Shown piece after piece: positions 2,407 to 25,481 of a stretch of 25,481 nt of DNA (position 1 is its first letter; every line of letters begins with the position of its first letter). The DNA is taken from the NCBI GenBank assembly GCA_045837725.1, contig JBEWZL010000080.1, positions 62,001 to 87,481 of the forward strand, in the 5' to 3' direction. The DNA comes from Vermamoeba vermiformis. Taxonomy: Eukaryota. The notes beneath the pieces were generated by a model that saw only the letters and a list, made by a program, of their open reading frames with translations, searched no databases and was not told where the DNA came from. A program made the position numbers and the translations under genes.

Positions 2407-5070
2407 TTAAAACACAAACATAACAGTTACCAGGGTGATAATGCTCGATACTACTTGCAAGGCATTTGCCGCAGAGGTGGGGTTAGTGACTACTGGCTCC
2501 GAAGTACTCGTTGGGGGTGCAACCGGTTGAGGCGGGATCTGACCTTGAACAGCGGTTGGCTGTTGTTTGCCGGAAAGACTAGTTTGAATACCACTCGGTG
2601 CTCCTGGTTGATTTTGAAGTTGTTGATTGAATTCAGTTTGTTGATTCTGGAATTGTTGCACAACTTGCGCTGGGTCTGGCTCTTGATTGGTCGGATCTGT
2701 TGTGAGGGACCAGTTAGCATTGAACGTATGAAGGCACATTGATCAACTTACCAGGAGCGACGTTAAGATCTGTTTCGAGGCTGGTCTGTTGTTGCTCTAC
2801 CGCTCGTTTCTTGGCCACTATCATCACACGACTGCCGCTGATGCCAGTCACATTGACGAATGCATCACGTACAAGAAGATCGAAGCCTGCAGGGAATGTA
2901 CCATTGGCGGTCAAGAGAATTCCGAAAGAAATCGCTGCGACAATTAGTTTCATACTTATATGCAATATACTTGAGACTTACACTCGGGACAATAGAGAGC
3001 AGGGGTGATTGTAAATGACAGTATGTAGTCTTCAAGCACCCAAGTGTACGAGTCACTTGCATTCAGCAGCACTTGCGAAGAGAATGGGAAGTTCGAACCG
3101 AGACCCACTGAGAAGACTTCAACTGGTGCCACGTTCTAGGTCACAACCATGAGATTAGAACATTGACTTTCATCAACATCGATCACTTACGATTGGTGAA
3201 AGATTATTCCTGTCATCGACTTGTGGGATGGAGAAGGAAAGAGAGCCAGTATTGTTGTAAGTGAAGTATCCTATTCTCGTGTTGCGATCAACGCACTCGA
3301 GAATCGGAACAACGTTTTGAAGGGGCAAAGGTGCTAAGGTATGAAACCTTTGAGCAATGCCTACGTGAACCCTGCAATTGTCGCCAATCACAACAGTGCC
3401 CTAGAATACGTCAGATATGTAATTATAGATGCTAATAGGTTCACTTACGTAAGATACATCTGCGTTGTAGTCAGTGGGCAGTCTGGCGCGAACGTTGACT
3501 TTCCACGTGTCCCACTCAAATCCCATGATTTCAAAGTATTGGCTATTAAGGTTGTATCCCAATGACAGCACAGTCTGGTCAACTATATAACGCCAATTAA
3601 TACTGGCATGCTTATGGAGTTACTGTATGATAGGTCTAATTCTTACCGTTAGAAAAGGCGAAGTTTCGATCAAGTGCACGGAAGGTTGTCGAAGAAGCCA
3701 AAGTTTGACCGCTAACTAGGTCCACAAAGTGTATCTAACATCATCAAGTTAGGAAAGGAAGTACTTAGAACGACATGTCTTACTCCAGAGCTCGAGATAA
3801 GATGAGCAAACGCCTTTCCGTTATGATACATAAGCGGAGAGTACAAAATGAATGCATTTCCGTTCCATGTAGCATAAGTCTGGTTTAGCGTGACCGCTCC
3901 AGTTGCCTATATTGAAAGTCAATACTTTTCTCCGTTAAACTCTTTGACTTACCGCATCGAGCTTGTAGAATCCAGCTCCATAAGCGTTCGCATAATGTGA
4001 GACTAAAATTTCATCGCCTACGATCATGACGTTCTTCGCGTATGCATTGGGCAAGCCGACAGTGTAGCTCGGCGACGCAATGATTGTAGTGCCTCCTACG
4101 GACATGGCGTACCCAGCCACAACAGGAAATTCCACTGATGAAGTCGTAGATTTGTACACTAAGACGTCTCTAATGCTCGTGCCGGTGAAGTCTCCAGTGA
4201 TGTTCGCGAGGGTCGTGTCAATGCTGGAAGTAGCGTCTTTGAAGTACATGATCACATCACCAATGAGGTTAGTCTGATACATCGATTTGACCATCCACTC
4301 GTTATTGAACGGAGCCATAGAAGTCTGAGCTCCGAAAGTTGCTGGGTCGGTAAAGTTGACCTGGATGTTGAAATTTGATGTGTCAAGTCTATTGGTCGTA
4401 GAAGCTCCGGAATAATATAACACGCCTCCTGCCAGCAGGGTAAGCCTTGGATCATCGAGTCCTGTCGAATGGCTTGAAATGAAAAGTTACAAGATCCGAT
4501 AAATAAATTTAATTTTGCCGAAACTTACTTATCTGTAACGCTATAGGAACCATCTGTAGTATTGAATCTAAAGATAGTATTCCATGAATTGTAAGTAGCT
4601 AAAATATACGCCCATCCCTGAAAATAAAGTGTCAAAATTACCAAATCCAATAAAAATAGATTGTATACCTTATCGTCTAAAGAGACCTCTCTTCCCACAG
4701 TGTGTGGATAAAATGTTGCAGGGAGATTCGGAAAGCTATGAATTACATTCAAAACAGTCGTTTTGCCGTTGGAAACAGATGCGCAACGAATCTGAAAAAT
4801 TAACCGTCAGAACTAAAAAGTTTAATTATTTAAATATTTAACAATCATTAAAAAGCTAGGATCTTGTCTGTTACATTTGTAAAGTTATTGAAATTCTTGT
4901 CTAAAAAAAGAGATCGATTGACAGAAGGTACTTACAGGTCTGTTGGATTTATAATTGCGCTGAGGATTTGCACCCGACATTGGATAGCCTGAGTCTGCTA
5001 AAGTAACTGCAGCGTGCATCCAGCCAACCAGGCACGCAACAATAATAGTGAAAACTACAATGCGCTTCAT
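2407..5070 (-). CDS. Surface protein paralog B, 682 aa: signal peptide, beta-propeller-like region, PILECV domain, SEA-like KKR domain, P/T/S stalk, GPI-like tail
   Basis: 11 exons: 5070-4936, 4791-4669, 4617-4529, 4472-3953, 3906-3784, 3734-3647, 3582-3449, 3400-3191, 3135-2982, 2934-2752, 2696-2407 (2049 nt, open). Starts MKRIVVFTIIVACLVGWMHA and ends with hydrophobic SAANALQVVSSIITLVTVMFVF, with no cytoplasmic tail. Confidence 0.88.
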
Positions 5071-5338: not shown

Positions 5339-8059
5339 TTAATTAAGAATTGAATACAAAATAGTTGCAATAATTAATGTTACGCTGGCCTTGACACTCG
5401 AAGTCACGCTTTTGACCGCTATTGGCGTAGGTGCAGCTACCGGGACAGTAGGAGGACTCACAGGAGGAGCTTGAGGTGGCAATACACCTTGTACTTCCGT
5501 GTCGGTCTTTTTTCCAGTAATGGCTAAAAGAATATTAGAAACATGCGCCAAGAGATCCAGATCTGAGTTACGTACAGTCAACTTTGACGCCAGCTGGAGC
5601 GCCATCAGAATTAGCTACTAGGACTGAAAATGACTCTTGTTCATTATTTACGAAGTTTCTAACGACATCGGAAGACGAAGACTCACTTCCGGAAGGATCT
5701 AAAAAAACGTCAAACAAAACATCCGCTCATTTTGCACGTTCAGATCCTTACCAGGAGCAACTTGAAGTTCCGTCTCTAAAGTGTCTGATTGAGCTACTGA
5801 GCGTTTTTTGGCAATGATTGTCACGCGGCTGTCAGTGACACCTGTCAGCATAACGAACGCTTTTCGAACGGTCTCTTGGAAGCCTTGAGGGAAAGGTGCA
5901 TTTGCTGTCAATCTAATCGTGATCGTTGCCGCTAATAGAAGGTATCAGTATAAGCTCGTATACTACGTGAAAACTAGTACTGTAACCTACTTGTCGGGCA
6001 GGCCAGTGACGAGCCAACAGCGAACGTCAAAGTGTAGTCTTCCAAAATCCACGTGTGCGTGCTAGCGTTGGTATTCAAAAGGACTTTGTGCGATAACGGG
6101 TACAACGGTCCTTCTCCAGCAGTGAAGTCAGTCAATGGTGCGAGGCCCTAAAGCCAACAGAATTAGTTCCGTTGTCCGCAAAAACCAGCCTGTAGAGAAT
6201 TCACACGTACTTCAGGGGTTAGTTCGTTTCGATCAGCGACGTGAGGGATAACAAAGTCCTTCGAACCAGCTCCCAAGTAATTGTACGAGAAGTACGCTTC
6301 GTTAGTCGCCAAATCCACGCATTGTAATGTCGGCACGAGATTTTGAATAGGCAATGGTGCAAAAGAGTAAACTCTGTCGTTAAGAATAGTGTACATGCGG
6401 CAATTTTCACCAACGATAGGGATGCCCTACATTTTCGTTAGACCTCGCTGAAGAGTTAGCCGTGTAACTTACGTAGTTATTATCGTACATATAAGATCCG
6501 TTGAACTGAGCCACCATTTTTGTTTTCCAGGTACCCCATTCAAGACCTTTCATTTGCAAAATGCCCGTGTCATACGTGTGCGTGTACATCAGTACCGTGT
6601 TGTCCCCTAAAATGTAATCATTTACCGTTAGTGAAATCGTAGCGTATTAGCAGTGTGCTTCTTACTTTTCAGGAAGATCGGATGCGATACTAGAGTAGAT
6701 TGTGGCCCTGGTTGCGGGACGACAGTTCCTCCGAGTAAATCAACAAATTGCAGGTCTCCGTTCTAACATTATCTTTAGTGCTAAGTTCAACGCGATTCAT
6801 TTGTATACGTACTTGTCCAGTAATTTGTGTGAATAGAACGTTATTGTGGTACACAGATCTGAGAGTTGTAAAATCCCACGTGTATGAGTTACCTTGGAAA
6901 GTACTAATGTCGGTACTAACGACATCAGTATTATCAGTCTATAATTAAGATCGTTAGTACTGCGTTGCAATGAAAGAATTGTTTTGGGCTCGTACCATGT
7001 TAATGCGGATCAGTGCCGACGATGGATAGTTACTCAAATAGAACAAGTAATCACCATCAAGCCAAGCCTTTCTTGCATTGCCAGGAAAAGATTTAGTCCA
7101 ATCCTTAGTGAACACATTCGTGGGACTGGCGCTTGGATTGACCAACACGGGGGTGGTACCAGATCCGGACGTCCAAACTAAGACTGGCAACGATTCATAG
7201 CCAACATTAGCATTAGGAGCGTTAATATTCACGTTGCCTGACGCATCAATGTACGTCAAAGAGTTGCCGACGTCAACACCGGTGTTGGACTTGACCATCA
7301 AGGTGGTTCCGTACGGTGCAAAGGATGAAGGTCCCACAATAGCAGAAGGGTTAGGGTTCTCTGTTGTGGCGATAGCTAGCATAGTAGTAGTATCTACGAT
7401 TACAGATTGCCCATCTGGAGCCAAGTAAAATTTGTTGTTCTTAACGTGCGTTGGATGCGCATCTTGATCCGAAGAACCCGGCAACGTAAACCTGCAATAT
7501 TAAAATGAGACCTATTAAAAAATATTTACTTTACTTCGTACCCTGTATCCTGAGCATTATAGCTTCCATCGGTTGCGTTCACTTTGAAAATACTGATGCT
7601 CACCTCGTTGTACGATCCAGCCACGTACAAAAAACCCTAAAAAATAAATTAAAAAATCGGAGAAATGTCGGAGAACGTACGTTTTCATCCAGAGTAAGTT
7701 GTGTGGAGGTGATCTGAAATGTACCAGCGAATTGCTGTGGAGGAAAAAACCAATCAGCACTCAGTACGGTTGTTCGGCCCGGAGCTACTTGTGGGCAAAG
7801 CACCTATTAAATAGGGATGTTAGTTTATTAAGGACTCATTTGCCGAAAAACCTTCAAAATAACGGTTAATTTCGGAAAAATTATATAATTTATATTTCGT
7901 CGATTAAAAGCCGTTACTAACCGATCGATCGATTTTATAGTTTCTTTCAGGATTTCCTCCTAGCATAGGATAGCCAGAGTTTGCAAGAACCTCTGCTACA
8001 ACTACGGTGGAGCAAATCCAAAAGCCAAAAATTGCTATTAAAAGCGTTCTGGAACTCAT
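5339..8059 (-). CDS. Surface protein paralog C, 689 aa, same architecture as B
   Basis: 12 exons: 8059-7922, 7803-7681, 7636-7542, 7491-6996, 6938-6813, 6762-6666, 6606-6473, 6426-6211, 6147-5991, 5931-5752, 5698-5576, 5523-5339 (2070 nt, open). Motifs LANSGYPMLGGNPERN, FAPLPIQNLVPTLQCV, HTWILEDY and IIAKKRS. Hydrophobic C-terminus. Confidence 0.88.
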
Positions 8060-13151: not shown

Positions 13152-13490
13152 TAAGAATTATTAAATTATTCATTGTAAAGTTAAATCGTTGTAGACGTGC
13201 TGTAAAATATTTATAAATTTACTAATTTAGGATTTGCTAGTTTAAAGGTAGCAAGGATCCGCTTTCACGGTACCGAGAGATCTCTTGGGCTCCCTACTCC
13301 TACGCTAGTCCATTGACATATTTCGTTGTACGTGTGACACAAGGGAACTAAACTGGAAAATTCGCGGACGACACCAACGGAGGCATGTTCTTCTTATTTT
13401 TTCAAAGAGAAATTGAGATTTTTAACAGAAAACGGTTTTTAAAATCATTCAAAACAACCGGTAATTATTTCAATTCGTAACATTCTCATA

Positions 13491-14084
13491 ATGTCAGCGT
13501 CAACTAAACAAAATCAATTTGTACTACCTGAATTAATAGGCGATAAATGCTGCTTAAAGGCGTGGAGTTTGGAGTTTGTTCAATCCATCACCAAACACGC
13601 AAACAACGAAAAAGTGGCAGGCAATCTATTGGCTCTTCCTTATCCTTATAAAGAAGAAGATGCCATCAACTTTATAACAACCGTTTTAAATGATGAAATA
13701 ATGGCTAAGAGATTTTTCGCTATTTGCGTGGATGTGGACGGCAAGTTAGAAGCAATAGGAGGAATTGGCGTGGACTTAAATTGCGGTTATAAACGACATC
13801 GCGTGGAGATTGGTTATTGGATTGGCGAAGAATATTGGGGCAGAGGAATAGTGCCCGAAGCAATACGATTGATGATCAGTTATTTATATTCAAATGACTT
13901 TAAAACACATGTCAATGAAGGACAAGAAGTGAAGAGAATAGACGCGTGCATATTCGCGTGGAACGCTAACTCTGGAAAGGTACTTGAGAAATGCGGATTC
14001 GTTTGCGAAGGATTGCAGAAGAGTGCTTATTTAAAGAATGGAAAATATGTTGATGGATTAATGTACACTCTCGTGAGAGAATAA
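13491..14084 (+). CDS. GNAT N-acetyltransferase, RimJ/RimL (Acetyltransf_3) type, intronless, 197 aa
   Basis: Motifs LPYPYKEEDAINFI, VEIGYWIGEEYWGRGIVPEAI (acetyl-CoA binding) and NANSGKVLEKCGFVCEG. Confidence 0.93.
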   Translation: MSASTKQNQFVLPELIGDKCCLKAWSLEFVQSITKHANNEKVAGNLLALPYPYKEEDAINFITTVLNDEIMAKRFFAICVDVDGKLEAIGGIGVDLNCGYKRHRVEIGYWIGEEYWGRGIVPEAIRLMISYLYSNDFKTHVNEGQEVKRIDACIFAWNANSGKVLEKCGFVCEGLQKSAYLKNGKYVDGLMYTLVRE

Positions 14085-15279: not shown

Positions 15280-16453
15280 ATGAGCAAGCCTGTAAGTTTT
15301 TCCGAGATCTAAGCGCTTTGATCCGATTGCTAATTCATTTTCTACAGATCGTCGTAGTCATTGGCATTACTGGTCAACAAGGTGGCGCTACCGCTCGTCA
15401 CTTGTTATCAGGAGGCAAATTTGAAGGTAAGCTTTTCCTTATATTATAATAATTCGGGAATTACCTCCGATAAACCGAAATTTCAACTCTTGCAAGATCC
15501 ACATAATTGAATTAAACAGAAGTTGGCGCATAATGTACAAACATTCATTCATGCCAAAGTTCTAATTGCTTGACATTGTTTTAGTACACGCCCTCGTTCG
15601 AGATCCGTCGTCAGAAAAAGCCAAACCATGGGCAAGCAAAGGTATGAAATACGTATTCCATTTTTAAAGAATAAAATTAAGAAGCTGTCAGTTCTATTCT
15701 TTGCACGTGACTTTTCGGGTTTGAACTGAAATTTATGCATAAATTTACACATTTTTTTTCACAGGAGTAAAGCTCGTCAAGGGAGACTTAGAAGACGTTG
15801 CCACTCTGGATTCAGCCTTCAAAGGTGCATATGGTGTCTATTTAGTGGTCAACTACTGGGGTATCGGTGCTGAGCGCGAGATCCAGCAAGGCAAAAATGC
15901 GATCGACGCCGCCAAGCGCGCCAGAGTGAAGCACTTGGTCTACACATCTGTCGGAGCTGCTGATAAGAAGACTGGCGTGCCGCTTTTCGACAGCAAGTGG
16001 GTTACTGAAGAATACCTGCGCGAATCCGGCTTGCACTACTCGATCCTTCGACCTGTTTTCTTCATGGAAAATTTCAACTTCTTTTTCGCAGACAAGCTCA
16101 AAGACGGAATTTTCAGCCAACCTTTGCGATCGACAGATCGTCTCCGAGTCATCGCTGTTGACGACATTGGTGCTTTTGGCGCACTAGCTTTTGAAAAAGA
16201 CATTTTGCCTAATAAGGCACTCGAAATTGCCGGCGACAATCCTACGATAGCAGAAGTCACCAAGATCCTCGGCGCTGACAAGTTCGAAGAAACGCCATTG
16301 GAAGGGATCTCCGATTCCGACACCAAAGTCATGTTCAAGTTCTTGCAAGACGTCGGGTTTACCGCCGATATTGCTGACTGCAAGAAAATTTATCCGAACT
16401 TGACTGACACAAAGACTTGGGCCGCAAAGGACTTTATTTACAAACGAAAATAA
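15280..16453 (+). CDS. NmrA/HSCARG-like NAD(P)-binding protein, 278 aa
   Basis: Exons 15280-15291, 15348-15426, 15585-15641, 15765-16453. Translation MSKPIVVVIGITGQQGGATARHLL...VHALVRDPSSEKA...GVKLVKGDL...AFKGAYGVY...VPLFDSK...ILRPVFFMENF has the atypical-SDR Rossmann motifs. Confidence 0.94.
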
Positions 16454-18627: not shown

Positions 18628-20934
18628 TTAAATCAAAGCAACGATCGGTGCCAATAAAGCGATAATAGACAAGCTAATTACATACGATGATGAAGTTTTT
18701 GTAAATGGGGAGTTAGTCGTTTGAGGCGTCAGTGGGGCATTTGGCTCAACAAACGGTGAGGTGACAGGAGGCTGAGACGGAATTACTCCTCTGATCTCCG
18801 TGGATAGTGGCATGCCATCGACATCTTAAGGAAAAAAGAATTAGTTAAATCGAACTGGTTCTCGCTAGGACTTGCCTTTTGTAAGCACATCCGCGGGTGC
18901 ATCCGGAAGGGTTGGAAGCTGATTAGTAAAAGAATTTAATTGTTGCTCGGCAAACTTTTGAACAGCCTCTTCGGGCGATAACTCGGTCTGGGTCTCATCA
19001 GGAGCAACTTGCAAGTCTAATTCAAGCTCTGTCGGAGATTGTTCCGTGGATCGCTTGCCAGTCAAAAATGTCACACGAGTCTCGTTAATTCCTGCAACTG
19101 AAGCGAACAGTAAACGCACTGATTCGCGGAAACTGATTGGGAAATTGCCATTAGCCGTTAAGACAATCTTAAACCGGACGTCTGAATAGAGTTAGGATTA
19201 ATAGAGACGAGTTAAATTTGAACGTACTCTGAGGGCAAAGAAGGTTCGAACTAACGTTGAATTTCAAAACATAATCCTCTAACTGCCAAGTAAACGTGCC
19301 AGAGTTACCAACGTTGGTTCTAAATGACAACGGAAAATATTTGCCTCGTCGATTAGCTCCAAAGTCGGTGCCAGGAGCGACATTCTAAAAAAGGAAAAGA
19401 TGAGGAAAAAGGTTCATGAATGAGTGACCGACAAGCCTTACCAGCGGCGACAAGTTATTTCGATCCGAGAATTGAGGAATGACCGCGTCAATGTCACCAA
19501 GATTGTCGTACGAGAAGTACGCCAAGCCATTTTGATTGACGCACTCGAGAATAGGAACGATGTTTTGAATAGGCAGCGGTGCGAAGGCAAATAATTTGTT
19601 GTTTAAAGTCGAGTACACGTGGCAATCCTCTCCGATAACAGGTGGACTCTAAAAGAATTTAAAAATTTAAAATTTGTGGATCTACCAACCATTTAATATT
19701 ACTTACTATAATAATATCAGAAAAGACATTATCCCTCGGAAAAGACCCTTTAGTATTAATCTCTAAAGTGTCCCAATCTAATCCAATCACATCAATGCGT
19801 TCAAACCCCAACGCCGAGTGCATCAACAATGTGTTATCAGCTGGTCAACAAAAAGTCAACAAGATGATATTTTTTGTCTAATTACTCACGTTTGGAAAAA
19901 ATCGGGGCTGAAGGAAGAGTATTGTAAGTTGAGTCAGGAAGTAATGTTCGATTGTTCAACAAATCCACGACTTGTGTCTAAATAAGGCAATTTATGTTAA
20001 TCGCTCTTTTAGTGCCATCAGCGCATTGAATTTAAATTTCTTTACCTTGAGAGCACCAGTATTGTAGATTTGAGCGATGGATCTGTTGTTGAACGCGTAA
20101 ATGCCAGCTTGAGGATTGAACGAACTGCCGCCGAATTTATCGATAGCCTTTGTTAAGAGAGACTCTCCAGTTGCCTATTAAATGAAATTTCGGTTAGTTA
20201 CCACTCATTCGTCGAAAAAACTTTGACGGGGTCATTATTAGGTGAAAATACTTACCGCATGAAAGACGTAAAATTTAAGTGAATTCGCGTTCACTGCTCC
20301 CTTTGTAAACATTTGCAAGTAGTCGCCTTCTATCCAAGCGAGAGCCGCTAATTCGCCGGTAAAAGAGTGCTCGTATTGAGGGGACTTGACGATTGTAATG
20401 TAATCTGGATAACTTCCAGTGTAACTAACAATAATCGGCATTTCATTCGTAGTATTTTTGTAAATCAATACACGCGACGGATCACCACCCACAAAATTGA
20501 ATTTTGTCGAATCCACTGTTCGATCCGAGACTTTGATGTAAGTCATAATATTGTCTGAAATCGTTGTAGAAGACACGCCTTCATTACTGGTGACCATATG
20601 AGTGCCCAAATAAGGAGCGAAGGAGAACTGAGGGTAAGGATAATTAGGCATCGGGATCGGATCTCCGATAAAACTCATTGTCGTCGTATCAACAGTGTAG
20701 GCACTTTGCGCTGTTGCGTAATAAAACTTGTTGCCCTGGACAATCGTTATGTACGCGATTGACAAGTCCTCTATGGTCGAAACGCTACATCCAGCATATT
20801 AAAAATTAAACTTTAAAAAAAGACCATTATTATAAGTATACTTACTTATTTAATACGGTCCCATCAACTCCATTTAACTTGAATATGTAATTTGTCGAAT
20901 CAACGAAACCCAAGGCCACAACATACACATTACC
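18628..20934 (-). CDS. Surface protein paralog D; exon 3 onward only, exons 1-2 displaced beyond the inserted element
   Basis: Exons 20934-20846, 20784-20256, 20174-20046, 19977-19890, 19840-19707, 19648-19442, 19384-19228, 19181-18876, 18824-18628, phase-consistent and mostly matching paralog exon boundaries. Motifs FAPLPIQNIVPILECV, FTWQLEDY and TGKRS. GPI-like tail. Confidence 0.85.
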
Positions 20935-20957
20935 CTATAAAAAATAAAGTTGTATTA

Positions 20958-20982
20958 AATAAATTGAGAGGTATCTCATTTT
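20958..20982. repeat. Left terminal near-palindromic repeat of the element
   Basis: AATAAATTGAGAGGTATCTCATTTT; 22/25 identical in direct orientation to 25446-25470. Confidence 0.75.
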
Positions 20983-20996
20983 TTATTTGTTTGACT

Positions 20997-23334
20997 TCAA
21001 TCGTCATATCGCTTGTTTGGTTTTTTGTTTCGCTTTGTTCTTCCATAGTCAGTTGTGTTTATATTTCGGTATTCACGTGCAATCCACTCAGTACTTGTCA
21101 CTGGCTGTATCAACACTGGGGCATCATAGTCATTTTCATCTAATTCATCTTCATCTGGATAAGTCTCTGGTATGACAGCATCAACATCAGGGTGCACTGC
21201 CTCGTGCACCACTTTCACTGAGGTTGTGGACTGGTCATGGTGACGCTGCTGTGGTGGCAAGAACATCAATTCATAATTTGTTGTTGGGCTGTCAAACTCA
21301 ATATCTAGTAGATCAATTGCAGTTGTGTCGTCTTCTGCAGGCTGATCGGCATTGAATAATTCTTCAAAGTATTGTTGCTGTTCCTCAGATAGTTTGTCGT
21401 AAGTTTTTCTGGTCGCTTCAATCACTTTGTCGTCAATTGGCTTTGGTTCAATCTTGATTGGTTTGTCCGCTGGAATATTGTGAAGGATAACAATATCGTC
21501 ACCATCTGCACCCCCTTTCCACTCCTCATCTGTTGCCGTGTAATTGCGCCAATGCATTACAACGCTTCCTTGTGCATTGACAGTGAATCGAAAAACATGG
21601 GGCTTTGTGTGCCCAGTGAGCTTTGGTAGATATGGGGCAAGCCAGCCACGATAATCATAGATAGTTTTTACCAATCGCACTTCTGGCGGCGAATTGTAGC
21701 AACTCTTAATGTACTCTTTGACATCTTCATCGTCGCCCGTAAGGAGATTATGTGACTTGAGTCCAATAGCCACTGGCACGTTCTCTTGGTCAATGTCTGT
21801 ATGAGTGTGTCCTTGAGGAAGGCAAATGAAATAGATGGTATTGGTAAACTTTTTGAGCAGCAAAACCGCAAAAAAGCCAAAAACGTAGGTATTTTTGTTC
21901 TCTCGCCAGCAGTTGTCGCTTTGAAATACCATTGTTGGTGGCAGAGCCTGACCATCTCTGATTTGCGAAACTATGTGAATGGCTAGTAGATTGATGCTGT
22001 AATTGCTGTCGTGACTATACTGTTGTGCAATTGAGACAAACAGAGTACGTCGCTTGGTGTTGTGGTTGATAAGTCCGGATATTTGCAATCGCAAACGTGC
22101 AAGACGGAGCCAAGATTTTGGGAACTGAGACCAGGCAATGTGCGGAATCAAAATCCCTGAATAGCCATCCCATATCATTTGCCAAATCAAAAAGCTAGCG
22201 ATTAGCTTTCGGTTAGAATATGTCAGCCGTTCTAACTTTTGCAATGCGTTGTGCTTTGCCACTTGCTTTTGAACGTTGGTAACTTGAGTTTGGGACACTG
22301 CAGCAGCTTGTTGCAACTTCCTACGCAAGATTAGCTTCACTGTGAGTATGGAAGAAACTTACATTCTGAGCTCCACACATTCGTCACATTTGCCCAACCG
22401 CGTAGTCTTTGGGAATTTGATCCATGCGTACTGAGAAATTGTCGTATAGAAAGTACTCAGCGATGCTATGCGATGCGTTTCCTCAAATTCTGAAGCATAT
22501 TGAGCGTAAAGAAGCTTTTTGTTAAGCGCAATAGGGCAGTGCCATTGATCACTATCAGGTTGTTCATCGAAAAATATGGACATCAAGCTGAGCACAAAAC
22601 TTTGCACCGACTGTAATTGAGCTGATGAATACAATCTGAGGGCATTACCATGTGGAATGACAGAGCAACTAGACTCTTGTTTGATTTGTTGTAGCAGAGG
22701 TGCAAGCTTGTTTGTACTGATTCCAAGCAGTTTGATGAAAGCGCGTTGACAGACTTCAAGACCGTCAAGCTTGTAACAAATCGTCGGAGGCTTGTCACTT
22801 CCTTGATCAACTTTCATCGCATTAAGGGAATCAAGTAGCCATCTTGACCTGCCATCGTGTCAGGCATTTAGCAGAAACATGAGGTACGTACCTTTCGCGC
22901 TCAGATTTCTCAGAGTATGGCAGTCGTAAGCGTTCAATCTTCTGGACATTAAATTGCCTCATACACAGTTGTTTGCAGCACTTGTATTGCAACAGCTTTT
23001 CATTGAAATTACATAGCTTAAGCTGCTTTCGTGATGGTGACGCGACGCGCAACTTTCGAGTCTCGGATTTGTAAGTGCGTTTTGGGGAGGGGTCATAGAT
23101 TGAGGATACTCGTCTATTAATATCTATTATGTGTAAGCAATGCAGCTAATTGTAGAACGATACGTACCGTCAAAAATTTTATTGCTATCAACCTCGTAAA
23201 TCCACGACCGCCGATCATCGCTCGTGCTTGTTGTCTCATCTTCATCTACATATATTAATGAAATGCAGATAGATATAAATGCCCATACCCTTATTGAAGA
23301 CTTTTGTTGTGTCAAAATCGCAGATCCAGTCCAT
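20997..23334 (-). CDS. DDE/RNase H-fold transposase, Sola1-like/DUF7869-type, ~721 aa
   Basis: Exons 23334-23289, 23245-23168, 23123-22892, 22848-22363, 22320-20997 (2166 nt, open). Motifs CCKQLC, YKLDGLEVCQRAFIKLLGIS, KCDEC, H..LQ..ER..Y, MIWDG (first Asp, ~22168), FQSDNCWRENKN (second Asp, ~21915), LPQGHTHTDIDQ and PHVFRF. The start codon is the least certain part. Confidence 0.82.
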
Positions 23335-23675
23335 TCGACAATTATTAAATTAATTATTGCGTTATCGGCACGTGACGGCTTCAGCAATTTATCTACAATG
23401 ATGGGTGTTATTGCACATATTATTACTGTTACTATTGTAATTATTCATAATACAATCACTCGATTAAATAGCCAAACACATCTGGTCGCTTGGATTTAAA
23501 AAAAAATTAACCAAACTGATTACCTTCAAAGTGAGATAGCTGCGACCCTATATAGTGCCTATTGTGGTGCTTATATCATGTTATATATTGTAAATACGAT
23601 AAAATTCGAGTTGGTTTTCTCAGGGTCTGAAACTCTGTTTTTAGTTTATTTTATTTTTGTTATTGAACACCACAC
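23335..23675. promoter_or_regulatory. Putative bidirectional promoter of the element
   Basis: 341-bp AT-rich gap between divergent ATGs, with a palindromic TATA-like CTATATAG at 23548-23555. Confidence 0.4.
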
Positions 23676-25422
23676 ATGTCGGCAGCCACTCTGGACCCTG
23701 TTCTTATACGAATTTATCAAGGGGAGTCTATTGATAATATTACATTGCAAGTACGAGATATTGTCCCGCCATCCACTCCCGGATCGAAGCTCAAACATTA
23801 TTGGTAAATATTATTAATTAACTACGAGATAATTATATCTATTGTTCTCATTCATAAATCAACCTTGTAAATAATATTTAATAATTATTACTGGTAATTA
23901 ATTTATTGCAACGTATGAAAATTAAATCTCCGTTATTGGCGGGTCGTTACGTAAATTACTTCACTACTTCGACACTTGATAATTTGCATTTGTTTACTGC
24001 TTTCATTTATTATTTTAACTGATGATTCATAGTTTGTTATTATCTGACGCGCATGTGATGATACCGTGCATTTTGCACGAGTCGCTGAATGACAAGATTG
24101 CAAATGGTGCAATCAAAACGGGATCAATACTACGTCTTTCGAAATGGAGCTGGCATAACCATAATGATCGGTACGCCCCTCAGCATCAATTTACATGATC
24201 TAACTACTTGCAATAGTCGTGTGCTCTCTGTCGTTGCATCGGGGCTTACCGTTACTGGGCACATGAAGCAGATCAATTTTAGTGCTGTGCGTGACATCTA
24301 TGAAGCAGTGAATGATTTTGAAGGTGAGTGTTATCGATGCCACGCTGTTCTTATAAATTGCTAGATGACGGACTTGACATGCCCACACCTACACACGCTA
24401 CACAAGCCACTGAACGTGAAGCCGATGAAAGAACTCTGCGTAGGTGACCAACTGTACACAGCATAATTGTCTTGATTGCTGATCATAATTTAGAATTGTG
24501 GATAGACAAAGGCATGAAGCTCATTGATGAAGGCATCGATCACAAATTTTACGACCACGATCAAGGACTGCAAATCAAGTACAAGAGTCGCTTATACGTT
24601 GAATTTGATGCTCTCATCTACAAAGAGGCGTTCCACGAGAAGGGCGATGATTGCTTTGCAAAGAAATACGGTGTGTGTACAATTGCCGCATGTTTAAAGG
24701 CAAAATCCACCTCAAAACCGTTAATCGCCCTGCATATCAACAGTGATGGTGAAGATCATTTTGCTTTGGTTCAACCAGGATCAGTAACCAATAATGGGTA
24801 TAAAAACAACGACGATGAGCCTATGCACATTGAACAATTGTGGAGAGAGCACGTGACCAACAACGGAACTACTGCACGCCCAAAGAAACAAAGACCAGCC
24901 AGTGATGACTCGGAACTGCCATCAAAAAGCACTCGATCTCGTACACGCGAGGACTCTGATAGTGAAGATGACCGCGCCCGTAAGCGTCATAAATCAGACA
25001 ACAATCTGTCGAATCAGGTCTCACCACAGCTCACCGAATTGCTTGCTGATGTTGCAAGCATTGGACAGAATATCTCTGCTTTATCAGCAACCATCAGTTC
25101 ACAGCATGATAAAACATCTCGTCAGCTCGTACTCTTGAACAACACAACCAACGCAAAGCATACTGCCATCGAAGAACGATTGAAGTCTTTGTCTGACGAG
25201 ATAAAGGCAGTCAATAGTTCAATCAAGACATTGGATGAAGTTGTGCAACGCATATTGTCGCACGTGAAAGCTGACGCGAAAGAGAAGGAAAAGGTTGTTG
25301 TCGTACAAGCACCAATACCTCAGATGCGCCAAGAGCCTCACTATGTTGTGCCACCAAACTACTACTCGGGAACACCCTCATACAATGGCCCATACAATAG
25401 TCCTTCATCACGTTTTTTCTAA
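23676..25422 (+). CDS. Element accessory protein, 458 aa: RPA70N-like OB fold, unknown middle domain, basic/acidic linker with NLS-like motifs, coiled coil, P/Y-rich tail
   Basis: Exons 23676-23803, 24033-24170, 24217-24323, 24365-24439, 24494-25422 (1377 nt, open). Spliced N-terminus MSAATLDPVLIRIYQGESIDNITLQVRDIVPPSTPGSKLKHYCLLLSDAHVMIPCILHESLNDKIANGAIKTGSILRLSKWSWHNHNDRRVLSVVASGLTVTG follows the Rep-A_N pattern (LQV..I, Y.L.LSD, LN..I..G....GSI.RL). This frame is absent from the ORF track. Confidence 0.8.
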
Positions 25423-25445: not shown

Positions 25446-25470
25446 AATAAAACGAGAGATATCTCATTTT
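25446..25470. repeat. Right terminal near-palindromic repeat of the element
   Basis: AATAAAACGAGAGATATCTCATTTT; arms AAAACGAGA/TCTCATTTT around a 4-nt GATA core. Confidence 0.75.
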
Positions 25471-25481
25471 ATCTAATTTAA

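Follow-up and report, generated by a model that had tools for sequence, protein, structure and literature searches.

The window, by which we mean the whole stretch of 25,481 nucleotides analysed here, is eukaryotic in look, with short introns, and carries towards its right end two intron-bearing genes that are arranged head-to-head on opposite strands (Table 1). One encodes a transposase-like protein, and the other encodes a second protein, which we refer to as the accessory protein. The spacer between their divergent start codons is presumably a shared promoter region. Elsewhere in the window are ordinary host genes, including those for a GNAT acetyltransferase (13443-14081, + strand; PF13302, E 7.4e-19) and an NmrA-like protein (15743-16450, + strand; PF05368, E 1.8e-32). 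Helicase and Rep families were found in none of the 11 other large window frames scanned with Pfam.

When its five exons are joined, the accessory gene is intact and stays open for 458 codons, starting with the ATG at 23676, and its exon borders are canonical GT..AG throughout. The four introns measure 229, 46, 41, and 54 nt. The first intron is long both here (23804-24032) and in the one related locus that we found, L001 (positions 660-917 of that contig, 258 nt), whereas the remaining introns of the window gene span 41-54 nt. The initial annotation had joined the first three exons, two of which it described as lying in frames missed by the open reading frame track, and both points hold: the borders are GT..AG, the frame stays open across the junctions, and introns 1 and 2 recur in L001 at the same position and phase. 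The stop-to-stop frames around exons 1 and 2 comprise just 46 and 59 codons, so a track with a 60-aa threshold is blind to them. We infer the splicing of this gene from its sequence and from conservation.

Table 1. Features of the two-gene locus, its flanks, and the related accessory gene of L001. Coordinates are window positions unless marked L001.
Feature	Position	Strand	Remarks
Family paralogs	around 990-2096, 3935-4992, 6954-7978	-	complete
Flanking host gene	20238..20934	-	fourth member of the local family; no 5' exons in the window
Left end motif	20954..20987	.	AT-rich, partly palindromic; 10-43 nt past the transposase stop
Transposase-like gene	20997..23334	-	721 aa, five exons, GT..AG borders, open frame
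Transposase exons	23334-23289, 23245-23168, 23123-22892, 22848-22363, 22320-20997	-	
DUF7869 core	about 21537-22103	-	PF25273, E 1.8e-47
Spacer	23335..23675	.	341 bp between divergent start codons; head-to-head layout as in L001
Accessory exon 1	23676..23803	+	residues 1-43; GT donor at 23804; L001 counterpart in the same phase
Accessory exon 2	24033..24170	+	residues 44-89; core of the RPA70N-like domain; Rep-A_N match
Accessory exon 3	24217..24323	+	residues 90-124; AG/GT borders; first 25 residues conserved in L001
Accessory exon 4	24365..24439	+	acidic, Thr-rich linker; frame maintained
Accessory exon 5	24494..25422	+	308 aa, stop codon included; covered by homologs P0005 and P0006
Family-specific middle domain	about 24496-24870	+	shared with P0005 and P0006
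Basic cluster RPKKQR	24877-24894	+	in a Ser/Asp/Glu-rich stretch
Basic cluster RKRHK	24979-24993	+	in a Ser/Asp/Glu-rich stretch
Heptad region	about 25000-25293	+	exon-5 residues 169-266; heptad scan
Right end motif	25446..25477	.	24-55 nt past the accessory-gene stop
L001 accessory exons	L001 1024-918, 659-519, 472-255, 211 to contig end		all GT..AG

The transposase-like protein has four homologs (P0001-P0004) with 57-65% identity, and an aspartate is invariant in each of the motifs WDGYSG, FQSDNC, and HTHTDIDQ. Three invariant Asp motifs are compatible with a DDD enzyme. The AlphaFold2 model of the core is of low confidence (pLDDT 52.8), and a Foldseek search with this model gave no match at E ≤ 0.001. 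Family resemblance suggests that the DUF7869 gene encodes an active transposase. In the C-terminal tail, DYDAPV(L/I) comes directly after an acidic run, and P0001 shares this motif (47% identity over 189 residues). Both the tail (20997-21140, - strand) and the C terminus of P0001 continue after this motif with WIAREYRN and a basic C-terminal cluster, which makes the tail a candidate region for docking and nuclear import. The N-terminal exons have no Pfam family; part of them (22892-23123, - strand) encodes a Cys-rich motif (C..CC..C) and a stretch that looks like a helix-turn-helix.

L001, a 2,894-bp locus with a transposase 66% identical to that of the window, was found by scanning metagenomes with the transposase alignment, and it is the only related locus in the collections scanned. 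Pattern matches to this alignment were confirmed for 1/124 in metagenomes, 0/61 in genomes, and 0/40 in viral sequences; the corresponding numbers for the accessory alignment were 0/121, 0/43, and 0/103, and none of the 149 pattern matches to the exon-2 alignment in viral contigs was confirmed. L001 also encodes an accessory gene, on the opposite strand and head-to-head with the transposase gene, as in the window. Introns 1 and 2 of the two accessory genes are identical in codon position and phase. Window intron 3 (24324-24364) is absent from L001, in which the counterparts of exons 3 and 4 form a single exon (255-472) and the linker is longer; this difference is an intron gain or loss inside the transposon family. 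DNA similarity between the loci is restricted to the transposase exons, and they are thus diverged, intact family members and not recent copies.

The N-terminal parts of the two accessory proteins are related. Exons 1-3 share 37 identical residues among 105 aligned, and the observed score was reached by 1, 0, and 4 of 2,000 shuffles for exons 1, 2, and 3, respectively. The linker is not conserved, as 688 of 2,000 shuffles reached its score. Because the exon pieces beat their shuffles and the linker does not, we delimit a conserved block of about 105-110 residues starting at the initiator methionine, a length that corresponds to that of the 101-position Pfam model of Rep-A_N (PF04057).

Pfam scoring was done on contiguous single-exon pieces, and the curated Rep-A_N cutoff is 26.7 bits. 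Exon 2 of the window alone (45 residues) matches Rep-A_N as its sole Pfam family, with a score below that cutoff (E 8.7e-5, 22.9 bits), and covers profile positions 42-80 of 101 (39/101). Exon 2 of L001 is just 40% identical to it, and again has Rep-A_N as the top match below the cutoff (E 5.2e-5, 23.6 bits) in the same register (positions 42-79), followed by BRCA2 OB1 as a weak second. Exons 1 and 3 scored singly gave no Pfam family at E ≤ 1 (0/4 pieces from the window and L001). In the register set by exon 2, the 43 residues of exon 1 would correspond to profile positions 1-41, and positions 81-101 would be covered by about 20 residues of exon 3. The three exons would thus span the whole model, from which we derive a domain of about 105 aa. 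Exon 1 is presumed to be the first third of this RPA70N-like domain, and exon 3 is presumed to contribute the last strand or strands before the linker starts. The domain begins at the initiator methionine, and the non-conserved linker follows the end of the conserved block near residue 110.

A language-model feature search of the Atlas with exon 2 ranked Rep-A_N clusters first to third (0.92, 0.86, and 0.85; 198/256 features; 12/30 hits), followed by the other OB families TEBP_beta/TPP1 and BRCA2 OB1; this ranking is support and not proof, because by the tool's own figures shuffled proteins reach a first score of ≥0.9 in 4 to 10 per 100. When compared by eye with the cleft of human RPA70N, the accessory protein seems to keep the basic positions (arginines) only in part. 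The N-terminal domain probably adopts a real RPA70N-type fold. The Rep-A_N-type domain of about 105 aa claimed in the initial annotation is supported by exon 2 in both loci and by the Atlas ranks; in its proposed Pfam check, exon 2 gave a match with a score under the cutoff, and exons 1 and 3 had no match on their own.

The remainder of the accessory protein is unlike RPA70. A HMMER search with the last exon against 1.84 billion representatives returned three matches, and the true relatives are P0005 (E 5.6e-14) and P0006 (E 2.8e-11), both single-exon predictions without an N terminus. P0007, a repeat protein with 50 matched residues, was dropped as a relative. A word-indexed search with the last exon scored 0/915 candidates, and the Atlas search with it gave no usable match. 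The middle domain, in which GDDC and IAAC motifs are invariant in the window protein, P0005, and P0006, has no Pfam family and no relative among solved structures, and its AlphaFold2 model is all-beta at very low confidence (pLDDT 38.8). The two basic clusters look like nuclear-import signals, and the heptad region, with a/d occupancies of 0.88-1.0 over exon-5 residues 169-203 and 218-260, probably makes the protein dimeric or oligomeric. P0005 and P0006 retain comparable basic clusters and heptads. A Pro/Tyr-rich tail ends the protein. Pfam found weak coiled-coil-type matches and nothing else in the 308-aa last exon, and the RPA DNA-binding OB families and zinc ribbon were matched in neither this exon nor P0005 and P0006. 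This agrees with the earlier description of an unrelated domain, RPKKQR/RKRHK motifs, and a heptad-rich region in place of the DNA-binding OB folds and zinc ribbon of RPA70.

Several features argue that the gene pair is a two-gene insertion interrupting a gene of a local family. A related motif lies just past each stop codon; the two motifs are each other's best match window-wide and in both orientations, and 0/2,000 shuffles reached their score. The window ends at 25481, which is 4 nt past the right motif and 59 nt past the accessory-gene stop. Should the contig also end here, a repeated element may be what interrupted the assembly, and this would be a hint that several copies exist. At the left, the transposase stop codon is 60 nt upstream of the exon of the fourth family gene. 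Two upstream exons with conserved motifs are present in all three other paralogs, and none was found in the window for this copy. The flanking gene therefore marks the insertion site, which is AT-rich, as its 5' exons are missing where the gene pair sits. Together with the shared end motifs past both stops, this replacement leads us to propose a 4.5-kb two-gene insertion. The four paralogous genes have no Pfam family; the three complete ones open with a hydrophobic exon, carry a conserved SGYPM motif after it, and look like a secreted-protein family. The accessory/transposase pairing is kept in the only related locus found (1/1). With the pair present in both loci available, the initial label of a transposon accessory gene is probably correct.

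On balance, we favour the interpretation that the first three exons begin the accessory gene of a DUF7869-type cut-and-paste transposon with two genes, and that this gene encodes a modular nuclear adaptor. The protein would begin with a diverged RPA70N-type OB fold (about residues 1-105), continue with a poorly conserved acidic linker and a family-specific beta-rich domain, and end with a C-terminal part comprising two basic clusters, the heptad region, and the Pro/Tyr-rich tail. RPA70N is a docking groove for acidic amphipathic peptides, and the OB head of the accessory protein would likewise receive such a peptide and not ssDNA. Its preferred ligand may be the conserved acidic C-terminal tail of the transposase itself (the acidic run plus DYDAPV(L/I)); host damage-response proteins would be the alternative ligand. 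The accessory protein could then link transposase molecules to one another and deliver them to the nucleus or the element ends, with the basic clusters taking the complex into the nucleus, the heptad region conferring multivalency, and the beta-rich middle domain as a candidate binder of element ends or chromatin. The mechanism in this full form is tentative, and we place it somewhat below an even chance.

ATRIP/Ddc2, RAD9, MRE11, and similar proteins normally dock on RPA70N, and cut-and-paste excision leaves double-strand breaks. The RPA70N-like head could dock host proteins of these types, with the oligomer recruiting repair or acting as a checkpoint decoy. This fits the excision breaks, the Rep-A_N evidence from two loci with the Atlas ranking behind it, and the nuclear-import-like clusters and heptads expected of a nuclear oligomer. 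Against it, the cleft residues look only partly conserved in the by-eye comparison with the human sequence, and the conserved acidic motif on the transposase offers a nearer ligand. Host damage-response docking and transposase-tail docking are equally compatible with the sequence; as a complete account, we regard the former as unlikely. The part of the earlier interpretation that stands is the hidden RPA70N-like head without RPA70 DNA-binding modules; the suggested recruitment or dampening of host repair or checkpoint factors would be a candidate role. A stronger version, in which a cut-and-paste lineage captured the checkpoint-recruitment head of RPA in an oligomeric nuclear protein and thereby plugs its complex into, or shields it from, an ATR/MRE11-type response, is decidedly doubtful. 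If true, the transposon would encode a mimic of the signalling surface of RPA and not of its DNA-binding surface.

It is improbable that the N-terminal domain has a family-specific fold other than an OB fold, with the 45-residue likeness to Rep-A_N arising by chance or from a shared beta-hairpin pattern. Both exon-2 scores are under the curated cutoff, RPA70N was not found when solved structures were searched by sequence with exon 2 or a two-sequence exon-2 profile, a word-indexed search with the exon-2 alignment and longer proteins scored 0/41 candidates, and high first scores in the Atlas are also reached by some shuffled proteins. Yet two sequences as diverged as the two exons 2 match Rep-A_N in the same register, an independent method ranks Rep-A_N first and other OB folds next, and the conserved block has the size and N-terminal place expected from the 101-position model.

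The accessory gene has a slim chance of being a host gene, ordinary or domesticated, that happens to lie beside a transposase-derived gene in a pair that is not mobile. Both genes are intact and intron-bearing, neither exact termini nor a target-site duplication could be read from the two ends, and terminal inverted repeats and extra copies are not demonstrated. However, the pair stands in place of the 5' exons in one family gene while the three neighbouring paralogs are complete, both stop codons are closely followed by the shared motif, the transposase retains its invariant Asp residues, and the head-to-head pair occurs again in L001, where the DNA is alike only inside the transposase exons.

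OB folds commonly bind ssDNA, but DDD/DDE cut-and-paste transposition is not known to need a long ssDNA intermediate. Protection of transposition intermediates by ssDNA binding, as proposed for the RPA-like proteins of plant Helitrons (PMC4683698), is the least likely of the readings and has a very slight chance, given that exon 2 matches the N-terminal docking domain, that DNA-binding OB families are not matched, and that a single OB fold is present.

The favoured adaptor combines elements that are each already known: RPA70N, transposon accessory genes, and Helitron-borne RPA genes. Like RPA70N (DBD-F, PF04057), the head of the accessory protein takes up about 100 residues at the very start of the chain, with a flexible linker after it. 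In contrast to RPA70, the accessory protein has no detected DBD-A, DBD-B, DBD-C, or zinc ribbon, it is encoded beside a transposase, and its single-exon scores are below the Pfam cutoff. Stand-alone Rep-A_N proteins of plants and rotifers (Atlas clusters) likewise lack the rest of RPA70, but their cluster representatives comprise 60-109 aa, and the accessory protein adds a middle domain, basic clusters, a coiled coil, and the link to a transposon.

The working model for the accessory gene is PIF/Harbinger, a two-gene cut-and-paste element with a non-catalytic protein. Its second (Myb-like) protein is thought to bind the transposase, aid nuclear import, and target the element ends. The accessory protein differs in having no Myb/SANT domain and in belonging with another transposase superfamily, and its interaction with the transposase is proposed. 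Plant Helitrons reportedly encode RPA-like single-strand-binding proteins (PMC4683698), and they resemble the window element in that a second gene of the transposon comes from the large subunit of RPA. They are, however, rolling-circle elements that use RepHel, whereas here the partner is of the DUF7869 cut-and-paste type and the docking domain of RPA70 is the only part present. The PF25273 match, the three invariant Asp motifs of the window transposase, which fit a DDD enzyme, and the AT-rich insertion site are compatible with Sola1. The hallmark of Sola1 is a 4-bp AWWT duplication, and the right flank of the window element lies beyond the window end. An autonomous Sola1 element has a single ORF of 630 aa, and the part of the source available mentions no accessory gene (PMC3845634); such a gene is also not mentioned in the available part of an account in which Sola elements are described as rare in fungi (PMC5751038).

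Our literature search found no report of a cut-and-paste element in which the docking head of RPA70 alone is joined to other modules, and nothing on DUF7869. The RPA70N-like head of a gene beside a transposase-like gene suggests that a transposon family borrowed a module of a repair protein as an adaptor. If the docking groove works, the element would be a natural test of how DNA breakage is coupled to host repair signalling or, alternatively, of an element assembling its own complex with a borrowed module. The poorly known DUF7869 elements would then also gain their first described accessory protein.
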